64,000 bases of DNA from Candidatus Nanoarchaeia archaeon (GCA_028279745.1 JANQNC010000001.1:594154-658153), one strand, 5' to 3'; shown: positions 16,601 to 59,772, counted from the stretch's first letter. The notes: generated by a model not told the origin, from the letters alone. Made by a program: numbers and translations.

Positions 16601-16895
16601 TGAAAAAGCTGGTTACTCCTTTAAGGTCAACAGAAACTTCTTCATCTTCAGACTTAGTTTCAACTTTATGTTCTGGTTTTTGTTCTTTGTGCTTTTTAGA
16701 TTTTCCTTTGAAAATTTTCTTGAAATCTATAGTGATCTCTTCCTCATCAGAATCAACTTTTTTATCTTCTTTATGCTTTTCGCTAGCTTCAGAATGCTTT
16801 TTATGCTCTTCAGTACTCAATGTATGACACCCCCAATATTTAGCTAAAATATCGACACTGCATTTATAAAGGTTATGATTGGCATATATAAACAA
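13626..16895 (-). CDS. aglB: archaeal oligosaccharyltransferase AglB (STT3) with C-terminal parvulin (PpiC) PPIase domain
   Basis: It has a polytopic TM domain, a DPYLWY motif in the first external loop, and the catalytic WWDFGHW motif (WWDYG family) at about 14974-14987. The last roughly 95 aa read HILINL...[43 protein letters not shown], a clear parvulin signature. The N-terminal 100 aa are Lys/Glu-rich. The ORF opens on a TTG. Confidence 0.85.
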
Positions 16896-23088: not shown

Positions 23089-23794
23089 TTTCTACTTCAC
23101 AAAAATCAGGCTTTTCAACATAATCATGACAGATTATATTAGCAAAATTTTTCTTGCTTATCACGCCTTGATAAACTTTATCATTAATCACAAGAGACGG
23201 CACAGAAGTTATGTTATATCTTGCTTTCAAGACCAATAAAGATCTTTCCTCTTCTTCATTGTTTAAATCGAGTGGGAAGATAAGCAACTGCTTATCCAAC
23301 TGTTTCTTGTAAAAAGTCAGAATAGTCCCTTGAATATTACACTCAGTGCATTTATCATCAAAGAAGTAAAGCACAGTAACTATATCCAAACCACAATCTT
23401 TCTTAGCCTGCTCAGCGAACAACCAATATCTTAAATTATCCAACGTGTACTGTCTTGATAAAAGATCAAACTTGTCTTTATTAAAATCAGACTCCTCGTT
23501 ATATGCTTCGATATCTGCCAAACTCTCACTCAAATCTTTAATTATATTTTCAAGTGTTGACTCAAGAACTATACAAGCTTCTGCACTGCTATTAAGAGTG
23601 TTCATAAAAAGGTACTGGAACTGCATGCTATCATAATCAAGATTCTGCATCTTGTTCTGGTTTTCTATGGATCTTACACGCTCGTTATCAACAACCAACC
23701 CAACTGAAAGACCCAACGCAAAAACTAACGAAGTGATAAAAAAAGCCACAATATACTTCTTATTGCTTCTTGCTCTAAATGAATTCTTTACCAT
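23075..23794 (-). CDS. membrane-anchored thioredoxin-fold protein (CxxC)
   Basis: It has an N-terminal TM anchor, a CTEC motif, and ITSVPSLVINDKVYQG, which resembles the thioredoxin/DsbA cis-Pro region. Confidence 0.4.
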   Translation of the reverse strand: MVKNSFRARSNKKYIVAFFITSLVFALGLSVGLVVDNERVRSIENQNKMQNLDYDSMQFQYLFMNTLNSSAEACIVLESTLENIIKDLSESLADIEAYNEESDFNKDKFDLLSRQYTLDNLRYWLFAEQAKKDCGLDIVTVLYFFDDKCTECNIQGTILTFYKKQLDKQLLIFPLDLNNEEEERSLLVLKARYNITSVPSLVINDKVYQGVISKKNFANIICHDYVEKPDFCEVENEEE

Positions 23795-25035
23795 TTCTGT
23801 TTAACCCCCAACACCAACTCAAACAATGAGATAAAGCATATGAAACTTATAAATATATTGTAAAAAAACAGATAAGCTAATAAGCTGAAAGAACCGTGCT
23901 TAAATAGCTTCTCCTCTGCATTCTTGTGAGAGAATAAAAGCATAGCGACCACCAAAAGGAATGCAAAATAAAGGATCACTATCGCGCCAAAACGAATATC
24001 TAAAATGTTAAATGAAAAAGACAAAGTAGACATGAAATGGAATATGTTAAAATTCAGTGCGGCAAGATTTGAGAACAGATGATACAGTGGTTTGAACGTA
24101 AAATATGCTGTGAAGAAAATAACTGAAAATGTAAGCATAAATGAGAAAACATTAAATGGTAGCTGAAGAAGACCAAAATCACCATATTTCTTATTAAGAA
24201 CCAACCCCCTATTCTTTAGGACAGTCAAAAATCCTCCCTTAAACCATCTTCTTCTCTGCTTAATAAGACCTTTAGGTGTGTCAGGAGAAACAGTGTAAAC
24301 ATATCCATTAAAACATTGCTTTATCTGATAATGTTTGCTTTGAAGCCTGTAAACAATCTCTTGGTCCTCAGTCAAGCTTTTAGTGTCAAAACCGCCAACT
24401 TTCTGTATAACATCTGTCCTATAGATACTGAAAGGGCCAGGAGCAACAAACAACATATTAAGCCTGGACATCATCCTAGCAAAAAACATAACTGTGATGT
24501 ACTCAAGCCTTTGCATCTTCTGAATAAGTGTTTTTGGTTTAAAGACCTTCATTGCAGGAGTTATGATCGCAACTTTCTTATTGTTTAACTGTTGGTATAA
24601 AGAGATCTGCTTCTTTAATGTTAAAGGATCAACAAAAGAATCCGCATCCAAATTTGCAAAAAACTCGGTTTTAAGAGTGCTAAGAACTTTATTAATAGAT
24701 GCAGCTTTACCCATATTCTCATGATGGATAACCTTCATGTTTCTGTCTTTGTATTTTGTTGCTGCTTTTTTCATAACAGCTAAAGTGTTATCTGAGCTGC
24801 CATCATCAACAGCGTACACTGAAAGTTTTTCTTTTGGGTATTCTAGCTTCATAATCGAGTCTATAGTCTTTCGTATTGTAGAACCCTCGTTAAATGCAGG
24901 GACAATAACTGCGACTGTGGGGAAATACTTTAACTTTGTAGATATTTTCTCCTTCTTGAAAATGTGCTCTTTATCTAAGAAGGTCAGCATCCAAAATACA
25001 AAAAAGTAAAGCGAAACAAACTGCAAACTCCACAT
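23788..25035 (-). CDS. processive family-2 glycosyltransferase (cellulose/chitin/PNAG synthase-like, QxxRW)
   Basis: It carries VAVIVPAFNE, AVDDGSSD, DADS, TEDQE and QRRRW, plus C-terminal TM helices. Confidence 0.75.
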   Translation of the reverse strand: MWSLQFVSLYFFVFWMLTFLDKEHIFKKEKISTKLKYFPTVAVIVPAFNEGSTIRKTIDSIMKLEYPKEKLSVYAVDDGSSDNTLAVMKKAATKYKDRNMKVIHHENMGKAASINKVLSTLKTEFFANLDADSFVDPLTLKKQISLYQQLNNKKVAIITPAMKVFKPKTLIQKMQRLEYITVMFFARMMSRLNMLFVAPGPFSIYRTDVIQKVGGFDTKSLTEDQEIVYRLQSKHYQIKQCFNGYVYTVSPDTPKGLIKQRRRWFKGGFLTVLKNRGLVLNKKYGDFGLLQLPFNVFSFMLTFSVIFFTAYFTFKPLYHLFSNLAALNFNIFHFMSTLSFSFNILDIRFGAIVILYFAFLLVVAMLLFSHKNAEEKLFKHGSFSLLAYLFFYNIFISFICFISLFELVLGVKQKW

Positions 25036-28655: not shown

Positions 28656-29555
28656 TTATTTTGTTTTCGAATAACTGTTCTCGGATGTAATGTCTCTCCC
28701 CTTGTCTACGTGAGGTGTGAATTTGATATCAATCCATTTAGACTTAACATTAATGGAACCATCAGGCATGTGTTTCACATAAGAATCTTTAGGAACGAAC
28801 TGATTATCAAGATGGAATACTCCCCCTGTTGAATCTAAATACTGCTTCATATCATCAGTGAATTTATAACGAGTAACACCATGTTCAGAACAAATACCTG
28901 AACTGAAATCAACGCTGGAGTCTGCCTTCCTAACACGATTTAAGTTGATTATTCCAGAAACCATGTCAACAACAGATACCCTTGCAGTATGTTTGCCTTT
29001 GAAAATAGAATGCATAACTTCAGAAGTCTCTTTTTGAGAATTATCATGGTATGCCTCTCTAGCTTTTGTTTCAGGCATTTTAGATGCCTCCTGTTCAAAT
29101 ACCTCAGGATCGCAATGAATATGCCAACCTTCAACCCTTTTATTGCCCTTAGCTAACTTTGCCAGATAGTCTCTATCCACTAACACTTCAGCTCTTATAA
29201 AACTAGAGTGGTTGTACAATTTTTCACGATATCCAGTTTCATGCCATTCTTTTTTGTCAGGCAAGTAGACCCAGTTTTCTTCAAGAGGCTGATTTAATAA
29301 AGTACGCATGTCTTGTATCCCTTCATCCATGCCTTTATTAACAACCTGCCGCGTTTTATTTTCAGTGTTTAACGCCAGCTTATCTACTAATTCATTATCA
29401 CGTTTTGGGATTCTATACTCATAATATTTTATATAATTGTAAAGTTCTTTATGGGGAATTGGAACATTAGGAAATAACTTTTCTACTGCCATTGAGGCTC
29501 CAAAGTAATAAGATGCCACAACCCATGTCCAAAATAATTTCTTTTTGAATCCCAT
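28656..29555 (-). CDS. secreted hypothetical protein
   Basis: Signal peptide MGFKKKLFWTWVVASYYFGASMA. The start was taken at this Met. The ORF track extends to 29585. Confidence 0.4.
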   Translation of the reverse strand: MGFKKKLFWTWVVASYYFGASMAVEKLFPNVPIPHKELYNYIKYYEYRIPKRDNELVDKLALNTENKTRQVVNKGMDEGIQDMRTLLNQPLEENWVYLPDKKEWHETGYREKLYNHSSFIRAEVLVDRDYLAKLAKGNKRVEGWHIHCDPEVFEQEASKMPETKAREAYHDNSQKETSEVMHSIFKGKHTARVSVVDMVSGIINLNRVRKADSSVDFSSGICSEHGVTRYKFTDDMKQYLDSTGGVFHLDNQFVPKDSYVKHMPDGSINVKSKWIDIKFTPHVDKGRDITSENSYSKTK

Positions 29556-29556
29556 A

Positions 29557-29688
29557 TTATACTCCCAAAATCTCATTAACTGCAAATTCGATAGCGTGAG
29601 ATTTATTTCTAAATACTCCTTTGCTGACTTGCTCTTTAATTCTAAAAAGGGTTTCAGTATCTATTGAAACGCATATTTTTTCCTTCAT
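29557..29688 (-). CDS. ribbon-helix-helix (CopG/Arc-like) small transcription factor, 43 aa, not in ORF track
   Basis: Manual translation gives MKEKICVSIDTETLFRIKEQVSKGVFRNKSHAIEFAVNEILGV. This shows the beta-strand (ICVSID), helix, helix pattern of RHH repressors. A TATA box TATATTTAAA lies 25-30 nt upstream. The gene is 1 nt upstream of the secreted-protein gene. Confidence 0.5.
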   Translation of the reverse strand: MKEKICVSIDTETLFRIKEQVSKGVFRNKSHAIEFAVNEILGV

Positions 29689-29813: not shown

Positions 29814-30049
29814 ACCTATTATGTAGGTATTTTTACTTACAATTTGAGTTATTTTACTTACTAATTAAGTATATTTACTTATTTTGTAGGTTTTTTACCT
29901 ACTTAGTAGGTTTAATTACTTACATAGTAGGACAAATACTTACATGGTAAGTCTTTTTTACTTACATAGTAAGTACAATAGAAAGTTTTATAAAGGATTA
30001 AACTTACAATGTAAGTTATTATAAATAAATAACAACTTACATAGTGAGT
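29814..30049. promoter_or_regulatory. array of seven 15-bp palindromes ACYTAC-N3-GTARGT plus TTTTACTTAC half-site direct repeats (candidate operator array)
   Basis: Palindrome copies lie at 29814-29828, 29897-29911, 29918-29932, 29938-29952, 29960-29974, 30002-30016 and 30035-30049. Half-sites TTTTACTTAC lie at 29831-29840 and 29853-29862. The last two palindromes flank the TATA-like TTATAAATAAAT at 30018-30029, just upstream of the ATG at 30058. Confidence 0.55.
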
Positions 30050-30057: not shown

Positions 30058-30276
30058 ATGATGGATGAGTATGGGAACGAAATAGAGACTTCTAAAATAT
30101 TTATACCTATCTCGATCTTCGAAGATAGAAGACTTTCTGCATTAGAATCAATCGTTGAATATCTCAAAGAAAAAAGACATCTAACACTACACCAAATTGG
30201 AGTCATGCTCAACAGAGATGACAGAACAATCTGGACAACATACAACAGAGCAAAACAGAAGAGGAAGAAAAGATGA
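30058..30276 (+). CDS. small HTH DNA-binding protein (sigma-70 region 4/LuxR-like helix)
   Basis: The 72-aa product carries LTLHQIGVMLNRDDRTIWTTYNRAKQKRKK, which resembles L..EIA..LG.S..TV..R..RA. It overlaps the next gene by 4 nt. Confidence 0.5.
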   Translation: MMDEYGNEIETSKIFIPISIFEDRRLSALESIVEYLKEKRHLTLHQIGVMLNRDDRTIWTTYNRAKQKRKKR

Positions 30277-32669
30277 AACATCACATAAATAACGCAGTCG
30301 CACTAATGTCGGTCATCCTAATACTTACAAGTTCAGTCTTAGTATACAATAGTGCAGAAAACATGCTAACAGGCTATTCAATCTATGATCCTGATGCAGA
30401 AATCTGCCACCAAAATATTGATTCATGTATTGACTTAGATGGAGATGGAATGGTCGGATCCGGAAGTAATGACGAAACAATATTCTCCTGTTTAATTGAT
30501 GAAAATGGACTGGGTTGTCCTGCAAACGATGCTGAATGGATTACTTTATTTGGAAACAGCAAAGAAAACTTCACAATACTAGCAGACTTTGACAATGATG
30601 GAGGAGTTAGCCAGTTAATAGACTTCCAAAGATGTTACGTGACAATGAGAGACAGAGCGATAGATGAAGGCACTTCCTATAATGTAACATGTAACCTACC
30701 ACAAGACGCAGTTAATGATGAAGTCTGCAGGTTTGGATGTCCAGACCTAAACGGAGATGGATTTGTAGACAAGTATGACTTAGCAATCTTAACCTCAGAC
30801 TCAGTATGGAAAAATGATAGTTTCAACCAAACATATCCTATGGCAGACATGACAAATGATTCTGTTGTAGATTGGGCAGATAGAAACTGTATGAGCCTGT
30901 ACTCAAATGAGTATGCACTATGCAACTTACCAAGACACTTCGAACATGAAAATGTGTATGTGTGTCCTGACTTAGAAAATATTACAACAGACTTAGACAA
31001 TGATGGATTTGTAGGAGTGAATGATAAAGCGTTGTTTGACTCTTACTTCGATGATGGTTTGTCAGTTGTTGACTTCACAGGAGAAGGAGACATCAACTGG
31101 AAAGACAGATGGGTCTTTGATGAATATTACAACTACAAAGCAGGAAGCGAATTCAATCAAAGCGTATTGAAAGTTGTAGGATGTAATTTGTACCATGCAG
31201 CATGGCACACAGGAGGGTTGGATCAGAACATTTCATGGGGGTTCACAGGAAGTGGAGGAATGCCGCAATCGATAAACTTCACCGTATTCGACAGTCCTGC
31301 AGATAATTTCGACTCGATGGGCACAACATATGGATGGCTAACAAAAGCAAGAATAAGAATAGAAGGAAACCCTGCAAATACCAAACCAATAAATGTAACG
31401 CTAATAGAACCTTCAACAGGCAAGACATTAGCAAGAACAGAAATACCTCCATTCGGAGATACAAGATGGGCTACAGCATACTTTGCATTACCACCTTACA
31501 CAAATCCAAGACTAACCAATGGAAGTAATTACACTTTGGTCCTTGATAGTCCTGTAACTGAGTTCTATGAAATACAAGGAGGACACAACTTCCAGACCTG
31601 GATGACAACAGCACATGGAGACTTGAATGGAGATGGAATAGTTGATAGTTTAGATGATCTAATCATATCTGCAATAAACGATAATCTGCAGTTTAATGGG
31701 ACAAGTAACTGGAGTTCAGATTACGATCTTAATAACGATTCAATAATAGACAATCTAGATCTGCAAATATTTGTTGATGCTGTTGGAAGCCCACCAATAT
31801 CTTCACAATCAACAATAAGTGTAGGAAGCTATTCACAAACTTTGCTGAATGGAGGAGGAATAATTCCAAACGGAGGCTTTAGTACATCTAACGGCACGGG
31901 TTGGCCACACAAATGGGTGGATAACCAACCAGATGTGGATGTTCCAACTGACATAAGTGTTGTTTCAGGAGAACTAAACATAACTGTAAACAATAACACA
32001 GGCAGTTTTACAGGTGTAAGAAGTAAAAAACTAAAACTAAAACCAAACACAAAATACAACGTAACTGCAAAAATAAAAATCCCAACCTCGATAACACAAT
32101 TAGATGGAACTTGGGAGCTACACCGACATGCACACAATGGGTTCTGTTCAGGAACGCCCGCTTGTCACGATTACACCTTATTAGGCGGGGACTACAGCTG
32201 GGATAATAGTACTTCTAGAGGGGTATGGCACGACAAATGGTGGACAATTGAAACCGGCGAGAATGTCAAAATAGGCTATGTGTTTGTTATAACAGATGTA
32301 AATGGTGGAAACGGAACAATACTTGTTGATGATGTAAGCCTCCACGAAGTTCCAGGATACGAATGGTTCGGCGGAGCTATAAAACTAAGACAGAAGTTTA
32401 CAGCAAACACAGACTCACCAATAAAAGTTGTTCAGCTAAATCTTGCGATGGATAAAGGAAATGATGATGACATCACTGTCAAGATCCTAGATGAAACGTT
32501 CACCCCAGTAGGAAGCACAGTAATACCTGCACTACACAACAGTACACCAACAATCTACAACGCAACGTTCACTCCTGCAGTTGCAGTTACACAAGACCTA
32601 GATTATTACATTGAAGTAAGTTCGCCAGGAGAATATACAGATTACAGATGGTTCGCAAACTATGACTAA
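30273..32669 (+). CDS. surface protein with four dockerin-like Ca-binding repeat pairs and a CBM4_9-like carbohydrate-binding module
   Basis: It has a signal/anchor peptide. Paired loops occur at DLNGDGFVDKYD/DMTNDSVVDWAD, DLDNDGFVGVND/DFTGEGDINWKD and DLNGDGIVDSLDD/DYDLNNDSIIDNLD. The sequence NGGFSTSNGTGWPHKW...KPNTKYNVTAKIK matches the CBM4_9 pattern. Confidence 0.6.
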   Translation: MKHHINNAVALMSVILILTSSVLVYNSAENMLTGYSIYDPDAEICHQNIDSCIDLDGDGMVGSGSNDETIFSCLIDENGLGCPANDAEWITLFGNSKENFTILADFDNDGGVSQLIDFQRCYVTMRDRAIDEGTSYNVTCNLPQDAVNDEVCRFGCPDLNGDGFVDKYDLAILTSDSVWKNDSFNQTYPMADMTNDSVVDWADRNCMSLYSNEYALCNLPRHFEHENVYVCPDLENITTDLDNDGFVGVNDKALFDSYFDDGLSVVDFTGEGDINWKDRWVFDEYYNYKAGSEFNQSVLKVVGCNLYHAAWHTGGLDQNISWGFTGSGGMPQSINFTVFDSPADNFDSMGTTYGWLTKARIRIEGNPANTKPINVTLIEPSTGKTLARTEIPPFGDTRWATAYFALPPYTNPRLTNGSNYTLVLDSPVTEFYEIQGGHNFQTWMTTAHGDLNGDGIVDSLDDLIISAINDNLQFNGTSNWSSDYDLNNDSIIDNLDLQIFVDAVGSPPISSQSTISVGSYSQTLLNGGGIIPNGGFSTSNGTGWPHKWVDNQPDVDVPTDISVVSGELNITVNNNTGSFTGVRSKKLKLKPNTKYNVTAKIKIPTSITQLDGTWELHRHAHNGFCSGTPACHDYTLLGGDYSWDNSTSRGVWHDKWWTIETGENVKIGYVFVITDVNGGNGTILVDDVSLHEVPGYEWFGGAIKLRQKFTANTDSPIKVVQLNLAMDKGNDDDITVKILDETFTPVGSTVIPALHNSTPTIYNATFTPAVAVTQDLDYYIEVSSPGEYTDYRWFANYD

Positions 32670-35600
32670 AAAAACACAAAATAAAAACATGTTGATGCTT
32701 TTGATAGTTGCAACACTATTTGCAATAACCTCTGTAGATGCTGTCCTAAACTGTACTTCGACAGATCCTTGTGAAATTCCTTTTACAGGCGGACACCCAC
32801 CAGGATTCCCCGCGCCACTAGAAAATTTACAATGTGGAGAGACGTTCTATTATGAATTTGAACTTCCAAGAAACCATAACTGCCAAGCCACAGTAATATT
32901 TGATGTGACTGATGGAGCAAACACCTCAAATAAAATAACATTCGGAGGCGATGATTTATTACAGAACTGTCAGAGAGTAATAACTTCAGCAGACTCACAA
33001 CAATGTGAAAACGTAAACATAAATGTGCCCATGGGAATAGATGAACTATTCACAGTAACTGCAAGCAGACCTGTAGAAGGGACTGAATGTAATAGCAGTG
33101 TAGAGATAGATTACACCTTAGCATATTATGCAACCTGCGCAACTACAAAAGACGGGTGGGGAAAGAATGGAAGTTTTGTAAACACAACTGGTGGAGAATT
33201 TTATTTTGAAACACTAATAGGTGAGGGTGGTAACTTCTCAGGACTGTCTATCTTTGATGTTAACAGCGATAATGTAATAAATGATACAGACTACTATGAC
33301 ATACTTTCAAGAGATGGTGAGCGAGACGGAACATTCTGGACCCCACTTATAGACTTTAACGCACAGTTTGGGGTATATGAAGTACTGCTTGATTATACGC
33401 TGGGATTCAGAGCATACTTAGGAAAAATAGTAAATGGAGCGATGCCAATAAGGTGGTTTATAACACAGGAAAATGATGGACGATGCTCATACGATGAAGA
33501 TAACACAAGCACAGACTGCCACTATTGTAACAACGATGGGTTCTGCGCAATAAACGAATATGAATACTTAGGAGAATCATGCCAAGACTGTAACGGGACA
33601 TTCCCACTAGAACCACAGATGACAGAGTTTGATTCTTGTAGCGAAACAACAGACATGGCAGACGTATTAGATATAGAACACGCAGAAAACTTCACAATAG
33701 AAGGAGAAGAACCAGGATGTAATGACGGAAACATCATGTTCACTCAAGAAATTAATCTAACAAATTCAGGATCAGGATACATACCATTAGACATTAACAC
33801 TTCAATAGACATAATTGACAATTACATAAGCGTAAATACAATAGAAGCACCACAGTTAGAGAAAGAAGCACAGCTGACAATCTACAACAGAACATGGTGC
33901 CACCCAGGAATATTAAAGAATGGTGCAGAATGTGTTGATTGTCCAGTACAAGAGTATGGAGATAAAATAAAATCATTAAACGCAACAGGAATAGCTGATG
34001 CAGACTTACTAACTAATGTAACAGGGCAAAGCTTTACACTAGAACTACAAGCAGAAAACTACACATTTGGGAAATTAACACAAAATAATGTTTACACACA
34101 GCAACAAGTCGGACAGGATAGCCCAATAAGTGTTGAGATAGTATCGGGGGCATTAACAACCAACGCAAGAATAAATATAACAGGAATAAACAAAATAATC
34201 TACCTGCCAAAGATGAACTTGGGAGGAGGACCATCTAAAGTTTATGTTGCAGAAGATGGAAGCACTTACACAGGTGCGGCACTTACAACAATATCAAAAT
34301 CTGCAGCAGATCCAATAAAAGTAACTTCACTTAGTGCAGTGAACACTTCAGGACCTCATGGAAAATCATTCTTCTGGTTCTATGCAGGAGAAACACCTAC
34401 ACTATTCGCAACAATAAATAATGATGGGATCTTCAATGCGACAGGCACAACAACAGTTCCAACACAGGTAAAAATTGTGTATACTGCAGAGTATCCTGTT
34501 AATATCACTCTAGACGGACACCATCTATTCCTACCTTCAACATTCCCCATATCTAATGCTGCATATCCTGCAACAAACAACATAACATACAAAGAAAGAG
34601 ATTTAGTGAATGTTAAAAGAACTCCTGAAAAAGATCTAAGCATAGTAGATAAAGATCCAACTAACTTAACATTTACAGTTCCAGCATTCGGATCAGAACT
34701 AATAACAGTATACGAATCAGAAGACCTAGTCCCAAGCTACAGTAACTTCAACGGAAGCACAACAAACTTCTGTTATGCAAAAGATGAAACGACAACACGA
34801 GAACTATCAATATTTAGAGCAGTCATTGAAGATACATCAAATGCAAAACTAGGATTAGTAAGTTATGCAAACTTTACAAAACTAGACCTTAATAATGAAA
34901 TCATCATGGGTGGAAGCAACAAGACAAAAATAATCTGGATAAACGGAAGCACAAGCGATGAGTTTGAAGGAAAAGCTGCAATAATAACATTCCACAGAAT
35001 GGATATAGTGCACCCACAAATAATGGGAACTGTAACAAATGTAGTTCCAATAAGACATTACGTGCCTCCAGGAGAAACACTATCAGAATTCATATTCTAT
35101 GCGGAACTAACTGGTAGTTCACCAATAAACATAACAATAGTAGACGCAGATAATCCAACAGAATTCCTAAGTGATATAGATAATATCACAATAAGAAATG
35201 GAACACAAGAAGTAAGAATTAATGTAAGTGATCACTTCAGTGATGACGATGTTAATGTGACTGACTTAGAGTATGGGGTTGCGAACCAAACAGGAAGCAT
35301 CAAAGTAACATTTGAGAAAGCAGCAAACGTAGTGACAGCAATAATAAGACCATTAACAAGGTTCTTCAATCCGTTCAGTTTCCAGTTCTTCGTTTATGAA
35401 CCTGGAGTAATTGATGGAGAGTCTGCATTCTCTAATTTCCTATTTGGAAACATACTGCCAGACAGACCACCAATACAAACACAAACAATACTAGACATAG
35501 TGTTCAATGAAGATGAAAACGGAACAATAGACTTATCTGACTACTTCGAAGATCCTGACAACCATCCATTACATTATACTTGGACACCGATAGATGCTGG

Positions 35601-38600
35601 CGGAAATATAACAATACACAAACAAGGAATGGCACAAAGCTTATGGTGGAACATAACTAATGCAACTTACACAGGGAATAACAGCATGACATTCCTACAA
35701 GAAGTTATTGCATTAGTTCAAACAAATACAACCGAACTACTTGCATCTCCAGGAACTTACGGATACATAGTGGCAGCAGGTTATGCAGACCAGACAGCTG
35801 AAGAAGGAACAGACCTACTTAGAATAAACTTCTGGAACACAACAGGAAATGGAATGTCATTCCCAGAAGGAAACATAAGCATAACATATGACAACGGAAA
35901 AGATCTGAAGATATACATACCTGAAGTTACCTATACTGATAGGAATAACTTCTCACTATTCGTATCAAAAGACGGATCAACATACTATGATGAAGGACTA
36001 ACACAGATTGCAAAAGTCTCACCTAACCCTATAGTTGTTCCTAGCTTAGTAATAGAACCAGATAGTGATTGGCACGGCAAGAGAACAATAGTCTTCATAG
36101 CAAACGACACAATACACAAGAAAACAAGCAACAACGTAGACATAATTGTTCATAACCTAAACGATGCACCAAGGAAACACAAAGACATTGATGATATAGT
36201 AATGCTAGAGGGAACTGTTGAGTTTGTTGTAAATGTAACACCCGACTACTTATTCGATATAGACATACCTACAGACACCGAGTTTGAAGCAGATGATGAA
36301 CTAACATTAACATATTCAAAACAGGGCGGCGGTGATGCTGAGTTTATCAACTTAACATTCAGCAATAACGGAGTTTATAGCGTTACAGAAGATAAACCAG
36401 TTAATATAACAGTTAAAGCACTGGATTTCCCATACTGGAACGGGTATGAAGCACTAACAGTAAAAGCAACAGACTCATACGGTAAGAGTGTTGAGACAAA
36501 CTTCACAGTATACATAATAGAAGTACCAACAGATCTTAACAGAACAATACTTCCAGCATACATCCCAATGGTTGAAGATGAAACTTATCCATTTGAACTG
36601 AACAACAACTGGTTTGTGGATGTGGAAGGAGATGCAACCTACAGATACTTCGGATTAAATTCAACAAACATAACAATAGAACTGAATATCGATAGTGGAA
36701 ATGGAACAATCAGAGCAGATCCAGACTGGTTTGGTGTAGCTGTAGTTAATTTCTCAGCATCAGACGCGACAAGCAACGTATCAGATATGTTTGTGATAAA
36801 TGTAACACCAGTAAATGACGCGCCAAGATTATATGGAGACATAGAAGTAAAACCATGGCCAAAAGATGAAAGTTATCTGGTTAATTTATCAGACCACTTC
36901 TACGAAGCATACGGAGAAGACACAAACAGTCTAGTGTTCTCAGACATAGACATAATACCAACACTAAGCACAACCTATCATGAACTAATCGCAAACAGCT
37001 ATACTAGTGAGACTGCAAACATGACCCCTGACACAGGATGGTACGGATCAGGATGGATAACCTTCTGCGCAGACGATGGTCAGTATCAGACGTGCAGCAA
37101 CATAGTAAGACTAAACATAACATCTGACAAACCGCCACAGTTAATATCACCATTCAATAGTCCGGAAATATGGCCAGAAGATAATGTTAACTACATCAAC
37201 CTAGAAGAACACTTCTGGGATGAAGAATTAGGAAGTGAGTTAGATTTCACACCATCACTAATAGGACCATTTGATGGATTCAACATAACACCATACGGGG
37301 AGTTGATTAACAGTAATGTATTACTTAACTTAAGCAACGTAAGAAAAGCAGCATACAACTTAACACTGGGAGGAGGATTCACATTCATAGCAGCAGACAA
37401 CAGTGGAAGATACTTAACAACCGCATATGGAACAAACGGAACACAGACACCAATCTTCCTATTAAGCCCACTACAACACAATGCAAAACCAATCAAGATA
37501 TACAAGACAAGCATGAAAGATCCAAGCTTTGAACTACCTGAAGAGACTTATAATTTAACAGGAAACGCAAACATTAGTGTAAGTTACACAGCTTATGAAG
37601 GAGATAAGTCAAGGAGAGTAGAAAGAAACATCGGAACAGGAATAACAGGAATAACAACAATAGATCCTATACCTGTAGTCAGTAACCAACAGTACACAGT
37701 ATCAGCAGTAATAACAACAGAGAACATAAGAGATCCTGGTGAGTCTGTAACAGTGGCAATAGAATGTGATGGCATAGCAACTGAAGTAGCAATACCAGGA
37801 ATGACAACACAAAAACAAGGACTGACAGATTGGGAGGATTGGGACACAATACAAAGAGTATACAACGTAGGATCAAGCACAGAATGTAGACCAAAATTAA
37901 TAATGGGATCTGGAACACTAGGTACTTTCTGGGCAGATCTATTCAACTTCGATAAGTACTACCCTACCAACACACCTGAAAGAGAGATGTCAATAACAGA
38001 ATCAAGCTTAGAATCAGCAACAGGAGGAGTAGAAGTATTCTTACCTGAACTAAACAACACACTACAAGCAATATACTTAGGAATAGACGGAACAACATAC
38101 TATGATGAAAACATGACAGTAGTTGCAAGAAGATCACCAAACATGGCATTAGTGCCAGACGAACACTGGTACGGCAACAGAACAATGGCAATAATTGCAA
38201 CAGACGGAATGTTTAACAGAACATCAAACAATATAAAATTAAGAATAGAACCAGTAAATGACATTCCAATATTCAAAGGACCAATCCAAAACATACCAAT
38301 GAATGAATCTGAAAGCAGAGCTGTAATACTAAGTAACTACTTCGAGGATGTTGAAGACAAAGTAGATCTAGATTACACACTTATCACAAACACAGAACCA
38401 GGAAACATATTTGTTACCATAAATAAAACTGAAAACGAAACAAACGCAACAATAACGACTGCACCAGGATGGGTTGGGTTTGGAGAACTACAATTTAAAG
38501 CAACAGACTCAAAAGGAGCGTCCAACGAGAGCAATGTGTTCATAGTATATGTTGGCGAGTATTCAGACAAAGTATTCGCAATACCTGGAGCAAATACAAC

Positions 38601-41600
38601 ATACTTCCTGGTAGAAGACCAAGGACCAAAACAGTTCCCAGTCAAAAACAAATACTTCAATGACACAGATGATGATGCAGTTTATTGGTACACAATAGAT
38701 GAAACCAAGTTTAATATGACTGCATGGGACGAAGACGCAGGATTCGGATTCATCAAACCATTACCAGACTATTGTAACTTTGTAAGCTGCACAAACACAA
38801 ACGGATATGACAATATAACATTACATGCACAAGACCCAATATCTGGAATAGTAAACACAACAGTGCAAATGGTTGTGGAATGTGTACCGGACATACCAAG
38901 AATAGAAGACGACATATACATAACCTTCCCAGAAGATACAAACTATTACACACTAATCGAATATGGATATGACCCGGATAAGATATGGGGTTGTGATAAT
39001 GTAACTGTAGAGTATCCAAGCTACGCAAATGTAAGAGTGAATCTATCAACATTCGATGGATTCAACATGAGCTTCCAGCCAGAACCTAACTTCAACGGAA
39101 TAGAGATAATCAATGTTACATTAACAGATGCTTATGGACTACAGAATTCAACAATCGTAACAATAAACGTTACACCAATAGATGATCCAACACAACTTAA
39201 CTGGACACCTTATGGATATACAATACCTGAAGATACTAACTTAACAGAAAACGTAAGCGACAAGATATGGGATGTTGATAACGTATTAACATTAAATGCT
39301 ACATACGATCCGTCAGTAATTGCATCAATAATATTTGAGCCGACCATGACCGTAGTCCCACTGATACAGAATTTCCTACAACAGATGATAGTGACACCAG
39401 TAATGGATTGGTTTGGCTTAACATTCTTCGATGTATATGCTACAAACGAATCAGGAGATGTTGTTGCAAATGTTTCATTGTATCTAAATGTAACACCAGT
39501 CAACGATGCACCAGTATGTGACGAGCAGATTGCAGATCAGGTAATGTGCGAAGATACCTTGCTTGACATACTGATAAATGGAAACATAATAGATGTAGAT
39601 AATGAAACATTAAATTACTTTGCACAAAATTTGACTGCAGGAATTGATAATGTGACATTCTTCAACGGGTGGAGAGATGAAGAAACATTATCAGAAAACA
39701 TACACTCCGTTACAGAATTTAATGATGTGCTTTATGCAGTAGGAGATGATGGATACATTGCAAGATACTATGATAAAGGTAATTGCACTGCAGAGTATGG
39801 ATGGGAGCAGGTAGAAAATACCTCAACTGCCAATGATTTACGAGCGGTCCATGGATACAACGGAATGTTGTTCACAGCAGGAGACAATGGAGAAGTTGAT
39901 GTGTATAATGGAACATGGAACAATGTAAGTAAATTTACAAGTTTAGATCTTCACGCACTGGAAACATACGATAATAAGCTATGGGTTGGAGGAGATGAAG
40001 GAGAGATATGGACATATAATGGAAACAACTGGACCAATATGACTAACTTATTCATCAACAGCCACGTAAGACATCTGAAAGCATTTGACGAAATACTGTA
40101 TGTGGGACAGTCATCAGGAACACACGGAGAAAAAATAGATTATTACAACACGAGCGAATGGAGAAACATAGTTAATGAACCATTAAACGGAAGCATAAAG
40201 GCAATGGAAGAATATGACGGAAAACTATTCGTTTCAGATGATAATGGAAGTATCGCGCACTTAGTTGAAGAAACATGGACATACCTAACAGGAACAAATG
40301 TCAATGACATAGAAAGTATGACTGTCTTTGATGGAATGTTATATACCGGTGGCGCTAGTGGAGAGATCGATAGATTTGATGGCACAGTATGGGAAAACGT
40401 GACAGGAACAACAACAGGGTTCACAACAGAGATGATACCATATAAACACTCCAAATATAACAATAATAGAGATTACCTATTCACATTCTCAAACGGAGAT
40501 GTAGATTCATATACAGGAGGATTCACAGCAGTAATCAATAGTTCAGACAACTGGTTTGGAAATGCAAATGCAACAATAGGCGCGACAGATGGTGAAATGA
40601 ACGGAACATGCGACCCAATCAATATAGAAGTGACACCAGTTGAAGATAATCCAACATTTGTCTCAATGTGGCCATGGATCAACACAGTAAGCATACTGAC
40701 AGAATCATATGATGTTGATAACTTGTACTCATACCTACAGAACTTAACATTAGATGTGTATAATGCAACCATCGAGAACAATGGAAGCTTATTATGTAGT
40801 GGTGTAAATGTTGAAAATGTAAGTTGTGAGTTCCCACAACCTGAAGATAACATGACACACACCGTGTTCGGATACTTATACGACAGCAACGGAAATGAGG
40901 CAGATAACAATCCACTAAATGCAAGCTATGAGTTTAATCCACCTACTGTTAACACAAATGCAGATGAAAGATTCTGGTTCATAGGGGATAATGGAACAAT
41001 CACAATAGGAACAACAGATGATACCGGATTATTGAATATTCAGTACTGCGTAGCAGATTATTATGAAGATGACTGCACAATAAATGAAACTGTTGCAGCG
41101 AGTGGAACTGTGAACTCACTAATACTAAGTGTAGAATGTGCACCTACAGATATAATGTGCAGAACAAAAGTCAAGTTCACAGCACAAGACATCTTCGGAA
41201 ACTATGCAGAAGAAGGAAGTGGAAGAGTCAACATGATATATGGCTCAGAAATCTATAATACCACCGTCAATGAAACAAGAAACGGAGAAAAAGTAGTTGT
41301 GTTAAATGGATCAGTAGTAAACAACTCAAACATAATCAGAAGTCTAGTAAGAAACGTAACATACAACGAAGTGACAATAATAGACAGTGAAGACAAGAAT
41401 AGTGTAACAAGTAATGCTATGATCTTTGTTGATCCATCAATACTAGAAAATAACACATACATAGGACCTAACACTTTGATCAATGCAATAATCAAACACA
41501 GCACAATAGAAGATAGCGATGTAAGAGACTCAGAAGGATGCCACATGATAATAAATGAAAGCACCATAATAAATGGAGCGATAATAAATGGAACTGTGAC

Positions 41601-42660
41601 CTGGAACGGAACAGTCTATAGTGCAGGTGAGCTAACAATAAAAGATGAAAATACAAATTGTGTATTCGATCAGTTCGAGCAAATACAAACACCACCTTCC
41701 GGAGGCGGAGGCGGCGGCGGAAGCTGCACACCTAACTGGGAATGCACAGAGTGGACAGAATGCGGATATTATAGCGGCATAAGGACAAGGACTTGCATAG
41801 ACACAAGAAATTGCAACAGAGACAGACCTGTAGAAAGAGAAACTTGCAGAGGAATACCTGCATGCTCAGACGGATTATGGAACAATGGAGAAGAAGGAGT
41901 AGATTGCGGAGGCAAATGCACGCCTTGTTCAGGTGAAGAAGAAATAACCGGCAGACCAATCATAGAAAGACCTGTAACTCCAATTGAAGAACAACCAGAC
42001 ACAATAGAGCCTCCAGTAGAGGAAGAAACAAAAGTTCCTTGGTGGTTCTTACTACTATTACTATTGTTCATAGTTGCAGTAATAGGATTCATTGCAGCAG
42101 ACATGAGAAAGAGACAAACAGTAATCCCAACAGTTAAAGAATCAGTTACACCAGTAGCAGTAGCTGAAAAACCAAAACAAGGAGTGTTGATGGTTGAGGT
42201 AGAAGAGTTAGAAAAATCAATACAGTCAGTGTTAGGCAGCGGATTTACTGTAGAAGATGTCAAACAAGCACTAATGAGAAAAGGATGGGACGAACAAACA
42301 GTTAACTTTGCATTGAAAGAAGCAGTTATCAAGAAGTATAAACTGCATGAACCTCACGGTGAATTAGAGAAATTAGAAAAATCAATATCATCCGTAGTTG
42401 GACACGGATATACTTGCCAAGACATCAGGAAGTCATTAGTCAAGAAAGGCTGGCCAAGAGATGTGGTAGATGAGGCATTACATGAAACAGTAGTAAGAAA
42501 TGAGAAACTACATGAAGTACATAATGATGTTGAACAACTGGTTAACTCTATCAAAGCAGTAAGGTGTCATGGATATGCTAAGGACGCAATCAAGAAAAAG
42601 CTATTAGATAAAGGATGGCCTCTTGCTAAAGTGAATGAAGCTATGAAAAAAGTTCCTTAA
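32662..42660 (+). CDS. giant (3332 aa) type-I membrane surface protein: cadherin-like repeats, 7-bladed beta-propeller, Cys-rich module, TM helix, cytoplasmic triple repeat
   Basis: A single uninterrupted ORF with signal peptide MTKKTQNKNMLMLLIVATLFAITSVDA. It has recurrent VTPVNDAP, NDIPIF and VEDNPTF motifs (cadherin-like DxNDNAPxF). It has blades of the form hL(Y/F)xxGDxGEIxxYNGTxW (about 39.7-40.5 kb). A Cys-rich module lies at about 41.70-41.94 kb. A TM helix WWFLLLLLLFIVAVIGFIAA lies at about 42.04-42.10 kb. N-x-S/T sequons are extremely frequent. Confidence 0.8.
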   Translation: MTKKTQNKNMLMLLIVATLFAITSVDAVLNCTSTDPCEIPFTGGHPPGFPAPLENLQCGETFYYEFELPRNHNCQATVIFDVTDGANTSNKITFGGDDLLQNCQRVITSADSQQCENVNINVPMGIDELFTVTASRPVEGTECNSSVEIDYTLAYYATCATTKDGWGKNGSFVNTTGGEFYFETLIGEGGNFSGLSIFDVNSDNVINDTDYYDILSRDGERDGTFWTPLIDFNAQFGVYEVLLDYTLGFRAYLGKIVNGAMPIRWFITQENDGRCSYDEDNTSTDCHYCNNDGFCAINEYEYLGESCQDCNGTFPLEPQMTEFDSCSETTDMADVLDIEHAENFTIEGEEPGCNDGNIMFTQEINLTNSGSGYIPLDINTSIDIIDNYISVNTIEAPQLEKEAQLTIYNRTWCHPGILKNGAECVDCPVQEYGDKIKSLNATGIADADLLTNVTGQSFTLELQAENYTFGKLTQNNVYTQQQVGQDSPISVEIVSGALTTNARINITGINKIIYLPKMNLGGGPSKVYVAEDGSTYTGAALTTISKSAADPIKVTSLSAVNTSGPHGKSFFWFYAGETPTLFATINNDGIFNATGTTTVPTQVKIVYTAEYPVNITLDGHHLFLPSTFPISNAAYPATNNITYKERDLVNVKRTPEKDLSIVDKDPTNLTFTVPAFGSELITVYESEDLVPSYSNFNGSTTNFCYAKDETTTRELSIFRAVIEDTSNAKLGLVSYANFTKLDLNNEIIMGGSNKTKIIWINGSTSDEFEGKAAIITFHRMDIVHPQIMGTVTNVVPIRHYVPPGETLSEFIFYAELTGSSPINITIVDADNPTEFLSDIDNITIRNGTQEVRINVSDHFSDDDVNVTDLEYGVANQTGSIKVTFEKAANVVTAIIRPLTRFFNPFSFQFFVYEPGVIDGESAFSNFLFGNILPDRPPIQTQTILDIVFNEDENGTIDLSDYFEDPDNHPLHYTWTPIDAGGNITIHKQGMAQSLWWNITNATYTGNNSMTFLQEVIALVQTNTTELLASPGTYGYIVAAGYADQTAEEGTDLLRINFWNTTGNGMSFPEGNISITYDNGKDLKIYIPEVTYTDRNNFSLFVSKDGSTYYDEGLTQIAKVSPNPIVVPSLVIEPDSDWHGKRTIVFIANDTIHKKTSNNVDIIVHNLNDAPRKHKDIDDIVMLEGTVEFVVNVTPDYLFDIDIPTDTEFEADDELTLTYSKQGGGDAEFINLTFSNNGVYSVTEDKPVNITVKALDFPYWNGYEALTVKATDSYGKSVETNFTVYIIEVPTDLNRTILPAYIPMVEDETYPFELNNNWFVDVEGDATYRYFGLNSTNITIELNIDSGNGTIRADPDWFGVAVVNFSASDATSNVSDMFVINVTPVNDAPRLYGDIEVKPWPKDESYLVNLSDHFYEAYGEDTNSLVFSDIDIIPTLSTTYHELIANSYTSETANMTPDTGWYGSGWITFCADDGQYQTCSNIVRLNITSDKPPQLISPFNSPEIWPEDNVNYINLEEHFWDEELGSELDFTPSLIGPFDGFNITPYGELINSNVLLNLSNVRKAAYNLTLGGGFTFIAADNSGRYLTTAYGTNGTQTPIFLLSPLQHNAKPIKIYKTSMKDPSFELPEETYNLTGNANISVSYTAYEGDKSRRVERNIGTGITGITTIDPIPVVSNQQYTVSAVITTENIRDPGESVTVAIECDGIATEVAIPGMTTQKQGLTDWEDWDTIQRVYNVGSSTECRPKLIMGSGTLGTFWADLFNFDKYYPTNTPEREMSITESSLESATGGVEVFLPELNNTLQAIYLGIDGTTYYDENMTVVARRSPNMALVPDEHWYGNRTMAIIATDGMFNRTSNNIKLRIEPVNDIPIFKGPIQNIPMNESESRAVILSNYFEDVEDKVDLDYTLITNTEPGNIFVTINKTENETNATITTAPGWVGFGELQFKATDSKGASNESNVFIVYVGEYSDKVFAIPGANTTYFLVEDQGPKQFPVKNKYFNDTDDDAVYWYTIDETKFNMTAWDEDAGFGFIKPLPDYCNFVSCTNTNGYDNITLHAQDPISGIVNTTVQMVVECVPDIPRIEDDIYITFPEDTNYYTLIEYGYDPDKIWGCDNVTVEYPSYANVRVNLSTFDGFNMSFQPEPNFNGIEIINVTLTDAYGLQNSTIVTINVTPIDDPTQLNWTPYGYTIPEDTNLTENVSDKIWDVDNVLTLNATYDPSVIASIIFEPTMTVVPLIQNFLQQMIVTPVMDWFGLTFFDVYATNESGDVVANVSLYLNVTPVNDAPVCDEQIADQVMCEDTLLDILINGNIIDVDNETLNYFAQNLTAGIDNVTFFNGWRDEETLSENIHSVTEFNDVLYAVGDDGYIARYYDKGNCTAEYGWEQVENTSTANDLRAVHGYNGMLFTAGDNGEVDVYNGTWNNVSKFTSLDLHALETYDNKLWVGGDEGEIWTYNGNNWTNMTNLFINSHVRHLKAFDEILYVGQSSGTHGEKIDYYNTSEWRNIVNEPLNGSIKAMEEYDGKLFVSDDNGSIAHLVEETWTYLTGTNVNDIESMTVFDGMLYTGGASGEIDRFDGTVWENVTGTTTGFTTEMIPYKHSKYNNNRDYLFTFSNGDVDSYTGGFTAVINSSDNWFGNANATIGATDGEMNGTCDPINIEVTPVEDNPTFVSMWPWINTVSILTESYDVDNLYSYLQNLTLDVYNATIENNGSLLCSGVNVENVSCEFPQPEDNMTHTVFGYLYDSNGNEADNNPLNASYEFNPPTVNTNADERFWFIGDNGTITIGTTDDTGLLNIQYCVADYYEDDCTINETVAASGTVNSLILSVECAPTDIMCRTKVKFTAQDIFGNYAEEGSGRVNMIYGSEIYNTTVNETRNGEKVVVLNGSVVNNSNIIRSLVRNVTYNEVTIIDSEDKNSVTSNAMIFVDPSILENNTYIGPNTLINAIIKHSTIEDSDVRDSEGCHMIINESTIINGAIINGTVTWNGTVYSAGELTIKDENTNCVFDQFEQIQTPPSGGGGGGGSCTPNWECTEWTECGYYSGIRTRTCIDTRNCNRDRPVERETCRGIPACSDGLWNNGEEGVDCGGKCTPCSGEEEITGRPIIERPVTPIEEQPDTIEPPVEEETKVPWWFLLLLLLFIVAVIGFIAADMRKRQTVIPTVKESVTPVAVAEKPKQGVLMVEVEELEKSIQSVLGSGFTVEDVKQALMRKGWDEQTVNFALKEAVIKKYKLHEPHGELEKLEKSISSVVGHGYTCQDIRKSLVKKGWPRDVVDEALHETVVRNEKLHEVHNDVEQLVNSIKAVRCHGYAKDAIKKKLLDKGWPLAKVNEAMKKVP

Positions 42661-42668: not shown

Positions 42669-43178
42669 ATGGAAGACATACACAATAAATGGCCCCACAG
42701 ATGGGTAAATTCAAAAGCAGCATCTGAAAACTCTAAACTGCATGGTCTTGGGGTATTCGCTAAAGAAGAAATAAAAAAAGGAGAACTAATCTGCATTCTT
42801 GGAGGAGTTATAGTTCCCAGTTCTGAAATTAAAGAATACTGGGGCAAGATGAGTCATGTGGGGATACAGATCCACGAGGACTTTTTTATGGTTCCCACAA
42901 CAAGAGAAGAGTTAGAACAAAACGGTGTATTTAACCATTCTTGTGAACCAAATATCGGCTTCTTGGAGGATATCCAGTTTGTAGCAATAAAAGATATACA
43001 ACCTGGAGAAGAGTTGGTTTTTGATTACGCATTTAGCGAAACTTTAATGGACCCTTTTGAATGTAAATGCGAGTCTGACAAATGTAGGAAAACAATAACT
43101 TCTAACGACTGGAAAATCAAAGAAATACAAACAAAATATAAAAAATACTTCTCTCCTTATTTAAGAAGAAAAATTTAA
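42669..43178 (+). CDS. SET-domain protein (lysine methyltransferase)
   Basis: It carries GLGVFAKEEIKKGELI, NHSCEPN, GEELVFDY and a post-SET Cys cluster CKCESDKC. It lies 9 nt downstream of the giant gene. Confidence 0.8.
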   Translation: MEDIHNKWPHRWVNSKAASENSKLHGLGVFAKEEIKKGELICILGGVIVPSSEIKEYWGKMSHVGIQIHEDFFMVPTTREELEQNGVFNHSCEPNIGFLEDIQFVAIKDIQPGEELVFDYAFSETLMDPFECKCESDKCRKTITSNDWKIKEIQTKYKKYFSPYLRRKI

Positions 43179-57363: not shown

Positions 57364-57403
57364 ATATACAATATTATATTACCGTGTTTATAAATGTTAT
57401 TCC

Positions 57404-58003: not shown

Positions 58004-58004
58004 T

Positions 58005-58214: not shown

Positions 58215-58217
58215 ATA

Positions 58218-58505: not shown

Positions 58506-58509
58506 TTGT

Positions 58510-58800: not shown

Positions 58801-58856
58801 GATAATCACCTCTCTAATAGTATATGAAAAATGGCAATGTTAGTTTATAAAGGTTT

Positions 58857-59734: not shown

Positions 59735-59772
59735 AATAACCCTCTTAGTCTTCTTATTATATAAAATTTGTC

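Follow-up and report, generated by a model that had tools for sequence, protein, structure and literature searches.

We analysed a 64,000-nucleotide stretch of DNA from Candidatus Nanoarchaeia archaeon (GCA_028279745.1, JANQNC010000001.1:594154-658153), referred to here as the window and numbered from its first letter. Its G+C content was 33-39%, and it carried RadA, RadB, AglB/STT3 and 5S ribosomal RNA. The presence of RadA, RadB and AglB/STT3 indicated that the organism was an archaeon. The subject of this work is an open reading frame (ORF) of 798 amino acids (aa), confirmed at 30273..32669 (+), and the giant ORF of 3,332 aa that overlaps its end. A sequence-only reading had described the 798-aa protein as a secreted polypeptide with four dockerin modules and a carbohydrate-binding module of the CBM4_9 type. 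What that reading observed was confirmed in part, and its interpretation found partial support. Our verdict is that its calcium-loop pairs are non-cellulosomal archaeal dockerin-like modules, and that they form the conserved head of a giant surface protein split between two genes. This split-giant context was missed by the sequence-only reading and is decisive. The features of the two ORFs are as follows.

30273..30365 (+): N-terminal hydrophobic segment, residues 1-31; signal peptide or signal anchor
30405..30665 (+): calcium-loop pair 1, residues 45-131; loops DLDGDGMVGSGSND at 54 and DFDNDGGVSQLID at 105
30726..30923 (+): calcium-loop pair 2, residues 152-217; loops DLNGDGFVDKYD at 158 and DMTNDSVVDWAD at 192; dockerin-like
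30963..31142 (+): calcium-loop pair 3, residues 231-290; loops DLDNDGFVGVND at 240 and DFTGEGDINWKD at 267; atypical
31170..31610 (+): beta-rich domain 1, residues 300-446; DUF4082-like; kept in all family members
31611..31787 (+): calcium-loop pair 4, residues 447-505; loops DLNGDGIVDSLD at 450 and DLNNDSIIDNLD at 485; most canonical dockerin-like module
31830..32342 (+): variable inserted module, residues 520-690; N-G-x-F...G-W start; faintly CBM_4_9-like
32355..32669 (+): beta-sandwich domain 2, residues 695-798, stop codon included; DUF4082-like
32662..42660 (+): giant "stalk" ORF of 3,332 aa; overlaps the 798-aa gene by 8 nucleotides (ATGACTAA)

Calcium-loop pairs and beta domains of the 798-aa protein

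A motif scan located eight calcium-loop-like motifs, at residues 54, 105, 158, 192, 240, 267, 450 and 485. All eight shared the pattern D-[LFM]-[DNT]-x-[DE]-[GS]-x-[VI]. The protein was shuffled 20,000 times with its composition preserved. The motif D[LFM][DNT]x[DE][GS], observed 8 times in the real sequence, was expected 0.06 times and reached a maximum of 3 in the shuffles; the strict 12-residue loop pattern was observed 4 times against 0.08 expected. Because the shuffle counts were far lower, the loops are not a by-product of an Asp/Asn/Gly-rich composition.

The loops formed the pairs 54/105, 158/192, 240/267 and 450/485, with spacings of 51, 34, 27 and 35 residues, respectively, so the dockerin-like spacing of about 34 residues was limited to pairs 158/192 and 450/485. 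The six peptides quoted in the sequence-only reading were all found (residues 158-173, 240-255, 450-465, 483-500, 533-545 and 590-602). That reading had placed a second loop 31-34 residues downstream of each first loop, which came close to the spacings of two pairs (34 and 35) and not to those of the others (51 and 27). Its third loop (450) and fourth loop (483/485) proved to be the two halves of one module. Its count of four dockerin-like modules therefore holds in that four loop pairs exist, although the number had been reached by mis-pairing and two of the four pairs are atypical and fail the dockerin model PF00404.

PF00404 (Dockerin_1) was the top-scoring family for the loops. The Pfam search that had been proposed as a check gave a divided answer: the whole protein scored 23.1 bits over two matched stretches, 0.2 bits above the gathering cut-off of 22.9, whereas the isolated modules scored 21.4 bits (residues 158-205) and 21.6 bits (residues 448-500), and the segments of pairs 1 and 3, scanned separately, had no dockerin match. 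Family members described below cleared the cut-off, with 61.3 bits over 3 stretches in P0016 and 39.5 bits in P0013. On the loop segments, EF-hand models (PF13499 and related) fell short, with EF-hand_5 and EF-hand_1 giving just 7.8-13.2 bits against cut-offs of about 25, and no thrombospondin type 3 repeat was matched. In the AlphaFold2 (AF2) model, the loops lacked an entering helix except ahead of the second loop of module 1. Thrombospondin type 3 repeats and generic EF-hand repeats were rejected as the identity of the loops, since PF00404 outscored every EF-hand model and no thrombospondin match was obtained; here the sequence-only reading, which had called the loops dockerin-type, was borne out. 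An NCBIfam scan of the 798-aa protein found no family.

Sequence searches against solved structures pointed in the same direction, with weak scores. A PDB profile search with the 798-aa protein returned dockerins plus two entries named "Serine protease" (8x39 and 8x3a) and nothing else, all weakly. The best matches fell on pair 4 (2y3n_B, E 0.0033; 5lxv_B, E 0.0073). Pair 2 matched the dockerins 2ccl, 1ohz and 4fl4 at E 0.27-0.79, and the dockerin 3ul4_B aligned with residues 236-283 of pair 3 at E 0.27. The entries 8x3a and 8x39 aligned to residues 156-285, and the fold search identified 8x39 as the double-dockerin of Clostridium thermocellum Clo1313_0689.

The full-length AF2 model, built from 3 sequences, was poor (predicted local distance difference test, pLDDT, 41.4). 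The model of residues 33-300, built from a 16-sequence alignment, reached pLDDT 79.3 and a predicted TM-score (pTM) of 0.63, with a helix after every loop. A Foldseek search of the PDB with this second model gave nothing significant, the top match being the double-dockerin 8x39_A at E 0.096. Its single modules superposed on solved dockerins with target-normalised TM-scores of 0.54-0.70. The score for 2y3n_B was 0.70, with a root-mean-square deviation of 2.7 Å over 58 columns; 6kgc_B and 2vn5 were other dockerins matched. Calmodulin-type EF-hand proteins were interleaved among these dockerin matches.

The four pairs differed in how closely they followed the canonical form. Pair 1, with its 51-residue spacing, loop insertions and extra helices between the loops, was atypical, fitted a dockerin in part and was unmatched by PF00404; its Cys45, Cys52 and Cys121 were invariant, and the AF2 model placed a helix after each loop. 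In pair 2, Cys156, Cys206 and Cys217 were invariant, and Cys152 was present in at least 90% of the members of an 18-sequence family alignment. Pair 3, spaced by 27 residues and carrying Thr/Glu at ligand positions, fitted a dockerin in part; ligand positions 1 and 3 of its first loop were lost in most fused homologues (see below). Across the 18-sequence alignment, most loop ligands were conserved and eight cysteines (Cys45, 52, 121, 140, 156, 206, 217 and 231) were invariant. Two more were conserved in at least 90%, namely Cys152 and Cys304, the latter occurring in all 16 members that reach that far. The clade with split genes (the 798-aa protein, P0002 and P0003) kept all eight loops and all ten cysteines.

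The first three pairs lay within residues 45-290 and belonged to a cysteine-rich unit of about 270 residues. The conservation of the cysteines in these modules, eight invariant and two at 90% or more, suggests disulfide bracing. We concluded that the four modules are dockerin-type F-hand pairs, two canonical and two divergent, with the first three built into one cysteine-rich unit. We infer that the eight loops bind Ca2+ and fold as dockerin-type F-hand pairs.

Ahead of the loops, the hydropathy reached its maximum (2.03 over 19 residues) at residues 7-8, and residues 7-26 were the sole hydrophobic stretch of the protein. Residues 2-31 were predicted to be a helix in the AF2 model. The N-termini of the head family, in which K/R-G/A-Q/S/E is followed by about 20 hydrophobic residues, appear to resemble class III signals.

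Two beta domains flank the fourth pair and an inserted module. Beta domain 1 matched the fused homologues at E 1e-8 to 1e-16 (phmmer), and in P0016 it matched DUF4082 over residues 309-401. In the 798-aa protein itself, DUF4082 (PF13313) stayed below its cut-off (20.4 bits against 28.4) over two stretches, the best being residues 705-788; remote relatives scored 33.6 bits (P0029) and 22.4 bits (P0051). By phmmer, residues 685-798 corresponded to a stretch at about 520-640 in the fused homologues, their second beta domain. Domain 2 also matched their first beta domain more weakly, indicating that beta domains 1 and 2 are paralogues. The AF2 block of domain 2 had pLDDT values mostly of 68-91, dropping at the final residues, and the C-terminal domain of the full-length model gave Foldseek matches to generic jelly-rolls alone.

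The inserted module at residues 520-690 is the region that had been assigned to CBM4_9. Its N-G-x-F...G-W start is a motif typical of CBM4/9-type jelly-rolls. The family assignment did not survive the Pfam scan: PF02018 (CBM_4_9; cut-off 25.9 bits) gave no match in the 798-aa protein even at E <= 10, and PF22637 (CBM_4_9_1) gave 13.7 bits with the whole protein and 16.9 bits with the isolated segment against a cut-off of 27. The insert matched the PDB entry 8xmz_A at E 0.029, and a pairwise BLAST comparison with the CBM_4_9 repeats of the heparinase-like P0083, which itself scores 62 bits with PF02018, gave E 3e-5. A word-indexed homologue search found no relatives of the insert, and residues 505-690 were modelled at pLDDT below 50. 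P0002 has a divergent version of the insert and P0003 has none; in the fused homologues only about 20 residues separate module 4 from beta domain 2, which leaves no comparable insert. Its absence in P0003 and the lack of room in the fused homologues place it outside the conserved function. The insert is lineage-specific and possibly a sugar-binding jelly-roll, but its assignment to CBM_4_9 is not established.

Fused homologues and the separate stalk gene

Besides the query, a word-indexed search found two relatives, P0002 (774 aa, 45% identity) and P0003 (612 aa). A HMMER search with the alignment of these three sequences, run exhaustively against 1.84 billion representatives, gave 109 matches, 18 of them at E <= 1e-30, and was the only route that yielded fused homologues. 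When the 18-sequence head alignment was used in the word-indexed search, with 8,000 candidates scored, 5 proteins were returned; we suspect that D/N/G-rich words swamped this search. A profile scan of GTDB representative genome contigs with the 3-sequence alignment found no relative.

Among the 18 HMMER matches, thirteen proteins (P0006-P0018; 860-3,458 residues) matched the head with their first 400-500 residues at E 1e-69 to 1e-98. By BLASTP, head residues from about 10 to 515 aligned onto residues from about 10 to 520 of the fused homologues at E 1e-46 to 1e-74. The shared architecture, spanning about 500 residues, consisted of three calcium-loop pairs, a beta domain and a fourth pair. The downstream 3,332-aa ORF aligned collinearly (BLASTP) with the remainder of each fused homologue. 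In P0016, for example, stalk residues 198-444 aligned onto 670-903, and stalk residues 3021-3228 onto 1913-2138. The fused stalks contained a single calcium loop, an LVDFNAIFG...CN-DGFC domain, repeats of cadherin-like, immunoglobulin-like and PKD types, a cysteine-rich region, a transmembrane helix and a cytoplasmic repeat tail. Pfam identified FG-GAP repeats, Big_9, cadherin-like and PKD domains and beta-propeller repeats in the fused homologues, whose transmembrane helix is C-terminal. The immunoglobulin-like, cadherin-like and PKD repeats scored above Pfam thresholds in these proteins; in the window stalk, cadherin-like and immunoglobulin-like (Big_9) matches were faint and all below threshold. 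The fused relatives occurred in metagenome-assembled genomes of Nanoarchaeota and Woesearchaeota.

Since both align in order to single fused homologues, the 798-aa and 3,332-aa genes represent a split giant surface protein. In the window, unlike in the fused family, the stalk is encoded on its own and begins with a signal peptide, and head and stalk are not one continuous polypeptide. Besides that signal peptide, the stalk has one calcium loop at residue 199, a C-terminal transmembrane helix and a cytoplasmic tail. The same split arrangement was found in two independent assemblies, L001 and L002, where a 72-aa gene, the head gene and the giant gene stand together as a three-gene cassette with overlapping or abutting ends. 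The stop/start overlap ATGACTAA between head and stalk genes suggests coupled translation.

We considered whether a frameshift or assembly error had produced the split, and rejected this. The split is present in three independent assemblies, the two genes overlap stop to start by 8 nucleotides, and the stalk begins with a signal peptide and an extra N-terminal domain. These features, including the sharing with L001 and L002, indicate that the gene break is real. That extra domain is lineage-specific and cysteine-rich (stalk residues 27-~175; window 32740-33190), with eight invariant cysteines in all three split loci. No counterpart was detected in 12 fused homologues, which argues that the domain arose at the gene break point, and no Pfam match was found. 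A PDB sequence search with the first 330 residues of the stalk gave nothing meaningful. Because head and stalk are fused in relatives and the operon order is conserved, the two proteins are best treated as one functional unit.

Several further observations concern the giant proteins. Some of the fused members (P0008, P0011, P0014, P0015 and P0018) have a large FG-GAP (integrin-alpha-like beta-propeller) insertion between beta domain 1 and the fourth dockerin-like module; P0014 has 7 FG-GAP repeats (148.6 bits). Seven members (P0009, P0010, P0012, P0013, P0015, P0016 and P0017) contain repeated modules of about 90 residues ending in H-F-T-x-Y (G-F-T-R-Y in P0009), similar to the H-F-S site of Nup98. 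The Nup98/S59 autopeptidase model scored 28.7 bits in P0016 (cut-off 28.4) and 27.0 bits in P0014. These sequences suggest that the fused giants might cleave themselves at Nup98-like sites. The HF[ST]xY motif was absent from the window and L001 stalks. The C-terminal end of the window stalk comprises a glycine run, cysteine-rich modules, the transmembrane helix and the cytoplasmic tail. The tail contains three repeats of about 40 residues (G-x-G-[FY]-T-x-[EQ]-D-[VI]-[KR]...K-G-W) with a weak, helix-turn-helix-like match to the first three-helix domain of RecX (22.1 bits against 26). The tail of this surface protein may have a signalling or DNA-binding role.

Candidate role of the head and alternative explanations

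Both proteins were rich in N-glycosylation sequons. The head had 23, compared with 10.3 +/- 2.9 in shuffles, and the stalk had 122, compared with 44 expected; in neither case did any shuffle reach the observed number. The AglB/STT3 N-glycosylation locus lies 13 kb upstream of the head gene.

DPANN archaea are tiny, mostly uncultivated and attached to other cells, and little is known about the way in which they find and keep hold of a host. Giant adhesins of the RTX type, such as the ice-binding adhesin of Marinomonas primoryensis, have an envelope-anchored repetitive stalk, fold outside the cell in a Ca2+-dependent manner and carry distal ligand-binding beta-sandwiches. They differ from the present family in domain families, secretion route and organism, and serve as an analogy alone.

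We consider it moderately probable that this is the distal head of a two-gene giant surface protein in a DPANN-type (Woesearchaeota/Nanoarchaeota-like) archaeon. The 798-aa head would be exported, probably N-glycosylated, dependent on calcium and folded around Ca2+. Its four F-hand pairs would serve mainly in Ca2+-dependent folding, stiffening and organisation of the distal tip, and may also make protein-protein contacts. Ligand binding would probably fall to the beta-sandwich modules. Head and stalk would associate non-covalently after export, and the assembly, by analogy with other giant DPANN surface proteins for which host binding has been proposed (PMC10266531), may serve attachment to a host cell or a surface.

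Several points weigh against this interpretation. Ca2+ binding, export, glycosylation and head-stalk association are deductions, and the adhesion role is drawn from architecture and analogy alone. The N-terminal hydrophobic segment could be cleaved off, stay in place to anchor the protein or undergo class III signal processing. The PF00404 score of the head itself is marginal, and the Foldseek E-values for dockerins are non-significant (best 0.096). The search for cohesins spans 64 kb of a 1.3-Mb contig, and a cohesin gene could lie elsewhere.

Comparison with known systems helped to define what the head is. Type I dockerins consist of two tandem segments of about 22 residues, a 12-residue loop plus a helix in each, and span some 60-70 residues. 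Modules 2 and 4 share with the type I dockerins of cellulosomal enzymes (PF00404; 2y3n_B, 1ohz_B, 2vn5_B) a pair of D-x-[DN]-x-D-G-x-[VI]-x-x-x-D loops that lie about 34 residues apart and are each followed by a helix. Type I dockerins sit C-terminally on enzymes, whereas the present modules are N-terminal on a surface-protein head, are cysteine-rich and include two of four that are too divergent for the model; the 798-aa protein also has no catalytic domain, and no cohesin partner or scaffoldin was found for it. The double-dockerin dDoc_0689 of C. thermocellum (8x39/8x3a) resembles the head in having tandem dockerin modules packed together in one polypeptide. Its match to the head was weak, with TM-scores of 0.17-0.30 over the whole model, and it is part of an S8 protease, with ScaD as the source of its cohesin partner, whereas the present head is part of an archaeal giant surface protein.

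Also comparable are the non-cellulosomal dockerin-like modules of Archaeoglobus fulgidus and of anaerobic methanotrophic archaea (ANME-1/-2), which are likewise extracellular, unrelated to cellulose breakdown and often on surface or S-layer-type proteins (PMC9012536). Those genomes also encode cohesins, up to 5 per protein, whereas none was detected in the sequences scanned here. The present modules differ further in belonging to a DPANN lineage and in their fixed three-plus-one arrangement as the head of one giant-protein family. DPANN giant surface proteins of the nanohaloarchaeal "SPEARE" type, for which host binding has been proposed (PMC10266531), also have several thousand residues, a transmembrane anchor and a long extracellular region. 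The likeness shown is one of architecture. The present protein lacks a VirB4/TraG-like ATPase and a coiled-coil tip, carries a head of calcium loops and beta-sandwiches at its tip, and is encoded by a split gene.

The first alternative is a genuine cohesin-dockerin system, in which four working dockerins plug into cohesin proteins encoded elsewhere in the genome or on the host, giving an extracellular multiprotein complex of the kind proposed for ANME and shown for Archaeoglobus. Such a system would fit PF00404 as the best family, with homologues that clear its threshold, the canonical loop spacing and residues of modules 2 and 4, and nearest solved structures that are cohesin-binding dockerins, the double-dockerin included. 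Archaeal dockerin-cohesin pairs have moreover been verified experimentally (PMC9012536). The Pfam scan for the cohesin partner covered the head (E <= 10), the stalk (E <= 0.1), other window ORFs (E <= 0.001; nearly all of at least 150 aa, with about 5.0-11.2 kb and 20.2-23.1 kb left out) and three fused homologues. No cohesin (PF00963) was found in any of these sequences, the genomic ones all lying within 64 kb. Of the four modules, two are degenerate. A transmembrane anchor is built into the fused homologues themselves, so a dockerin is unneeded for fixing them to the cell. Passages of PMC9012536 that cite Peer et al. 2009 state that many non-cellulosomal dockerin-like modules exist without cohesins. 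We regard a cohesin-dockerin system as unlikely. From the self-anchored fused homologues and the lack of a detected cohesin, we infer that the modules of the head do not serve recruitment to a cohesin scaffold.

Neither the number of modules nor their occurrence in archaea singles out this protein, contrary to the sequence-only reading. It had held that four dockerins in one polypeptide are unusual anywhere. Among the matches of the same HMMER search, the number of PF00404 modules ranged from 3 to 9, with 9 in P0036, 8 in P0023, 6 in both P0028 and P0032, 5 in P0025 and 4 in P0026; double, triple, sextuple and septuple dockerins and a solved double-dockerin are on record (PMC12484212). Its statement that such systems are rare in archaea is outdated, as dockerin and cohesin modules are numerous in ANME archaea, have been verified in Archaeoglobus and occur in diverse non-cellulolytic bacteria and archaea (PMC9012536).

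A further possibility is that the dockerin-like modules are docking devices with a non-cohesin receptor, either the cysteine-rich domain of the stalk or a surface protein of the host cell. We rate this as improbable. If the receptor were on the host surface, the three-plus-one dockerin head would be the host-recognition tip of DPANN ectosymbionts, switched by the 72-aa regulator on its phased array.

In a more specific form of this proposal, one or more of the modules bind the cysteine-rich N-terminal domain of the stalk (residues 27-~175), a non-cohesin receptor that would hold the separately encoded head and stalk together. The distribution of that domain, with its eight invariant cysteines in the three split loci and no detected counterpart in 12 fused homologues, speaks for such a role, and the coupled translation suggested by the overlap ATGACTAA is consistent with it. 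The first loop of module 3 is also nearer to canonical in the split clade (DLDNDG in the window protein and P0002, DLGNDG in P0003). However, all four modules are already present in the fused proteins, which need no re-joining, and the stalk domain, known from three split loci only, has no PDB or Pfam match; the interaction is a proposal, and we consider it distinctly doubtful.

A carbohydrate-binding or carbohydrate-active part of a cellulosome-like, polysaccharide-degrading complex with a working CBM4_9, the role implied by the sequence-only reading, is largely refuted and very improbable, since against the N-G-x-F...G-W start and the faint CBM_4_9-type similarity of the insert (PF22637, 8xmz_A and P0083, as above) stand a missing PF02018 match, CBM-type scores that are all below curated thresholds, the absence of the insert in P0003, the lack of room for it in the fused homologues, its lack of relatives in the word-indexed search, and the finding of no glycoside hydrolase, cohesin or scaffoldin among the window ORFs scanned.

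If the 798-aa protein is indeed the distal head of a split giant surface protein, it offers a concrete candidate for an attachment tip that can be expressed on its own. The analysis defines a giant membrane-anchored family in Woesearchaeota/Nanoarchaeota-type genomes that is tipped by a conserved calcium-loop head rich in cysteine, and it documents a natural split of head and stalk into two genes. The family also provides a case of dockerin-type modules outside any cohesin scaffold. It does not overturn current views, as archaeal surface dockerin-like modules and giant DPANN adhesins were both already known.

Upstream array and neighbouring genes

Two further features lie immediately upstream of the head gene.

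29836..30048 (+): palindromic box array; nine 13-bp CTTAC-N3-GTAAG boxes; putative operator/promoter of the cassette
30058..30276 (+): basic protein of 72 aa, encoded first in the cassette; stop codon overlapping the beginning of the 798-aa gene

The boxes were spaced by 21, 21, 20, 21, 20, 22, 42 and 33 bp, a phase of about 21 bp, and the 42-bp gap contained a sequence, GAAAGTTTTATAAAGG, resembling a B recognition element (BRE) and TATA box. Six of the 7 matches to the box with at most one mismatch in the whole window fell within the array. The same box spacing was found upstream of the cassettes at L001 679-913 and L002 9547-9780, where the proteins are only about 45% identical. Fused-type loci had no box array.

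The 72-aa protein gave a weak HTH_11 signal (15.4 bits, below threshold), and a PDB sequence search with it returned nothing meaningful. L001 and L002 each have an ORF of 72 aa at this position, and the one in L002 is a close match in sequence. The array is probably an operator array for this first gene, whose product would regulate the operon through the phased palindromes. With nine palindromes phased at 21 bp, it could become a tractable model of archaeal gene control.

The 72-aa protein was specific to split-type cassettes. In L004 and L006, a small AbrB/SpoVT-like ORF (…GQIVIPK-IR…EEGAAF…) stands just upstream of the fused giant gene and replaces the 72-aa protein and the array. The two gene forms are thus paired with different small DNA-binding proteins.

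The remaining observations concern the neighbours of the cassette. A 309-aa ORF at 28656-29585 (-), between RadB and the cassette, had no Pfam match and was missing at the equivalent position of L002. The giant gene was followed directly by one for a SET-domain protein of the lysine methyltransferase type, at 42669-43178 (60.1 bits). The AglB/STT3 oligosaccharyltransferase, of 1,089 aa at 13626-16895 (-), was fused to a C-terminal PpiC-type rotamase. It belongs to an N-glycosylation region at 11162-16895 and 23788-25035 (-), which also contains two glycosyltransferases of family GT2 (11162-11857 and 23788-25035) and a PMT_2 membrane protein (11854-13626).

At 53407-63546 (-), a run of ORFs had N-termini resembling class III (prepilin-type) signals (MRKGQANK..., MNKKAQGM..., MKKAQTEV..., MRKAQMKM... 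and MRKKGAIEIQ...). An M23 peptidase-domain protein at 53407-55425 (-) adjoined these prepilin-like ORFs. Judged by these N-termini, 53407-63546 is probably a type IV pilus-like locus.

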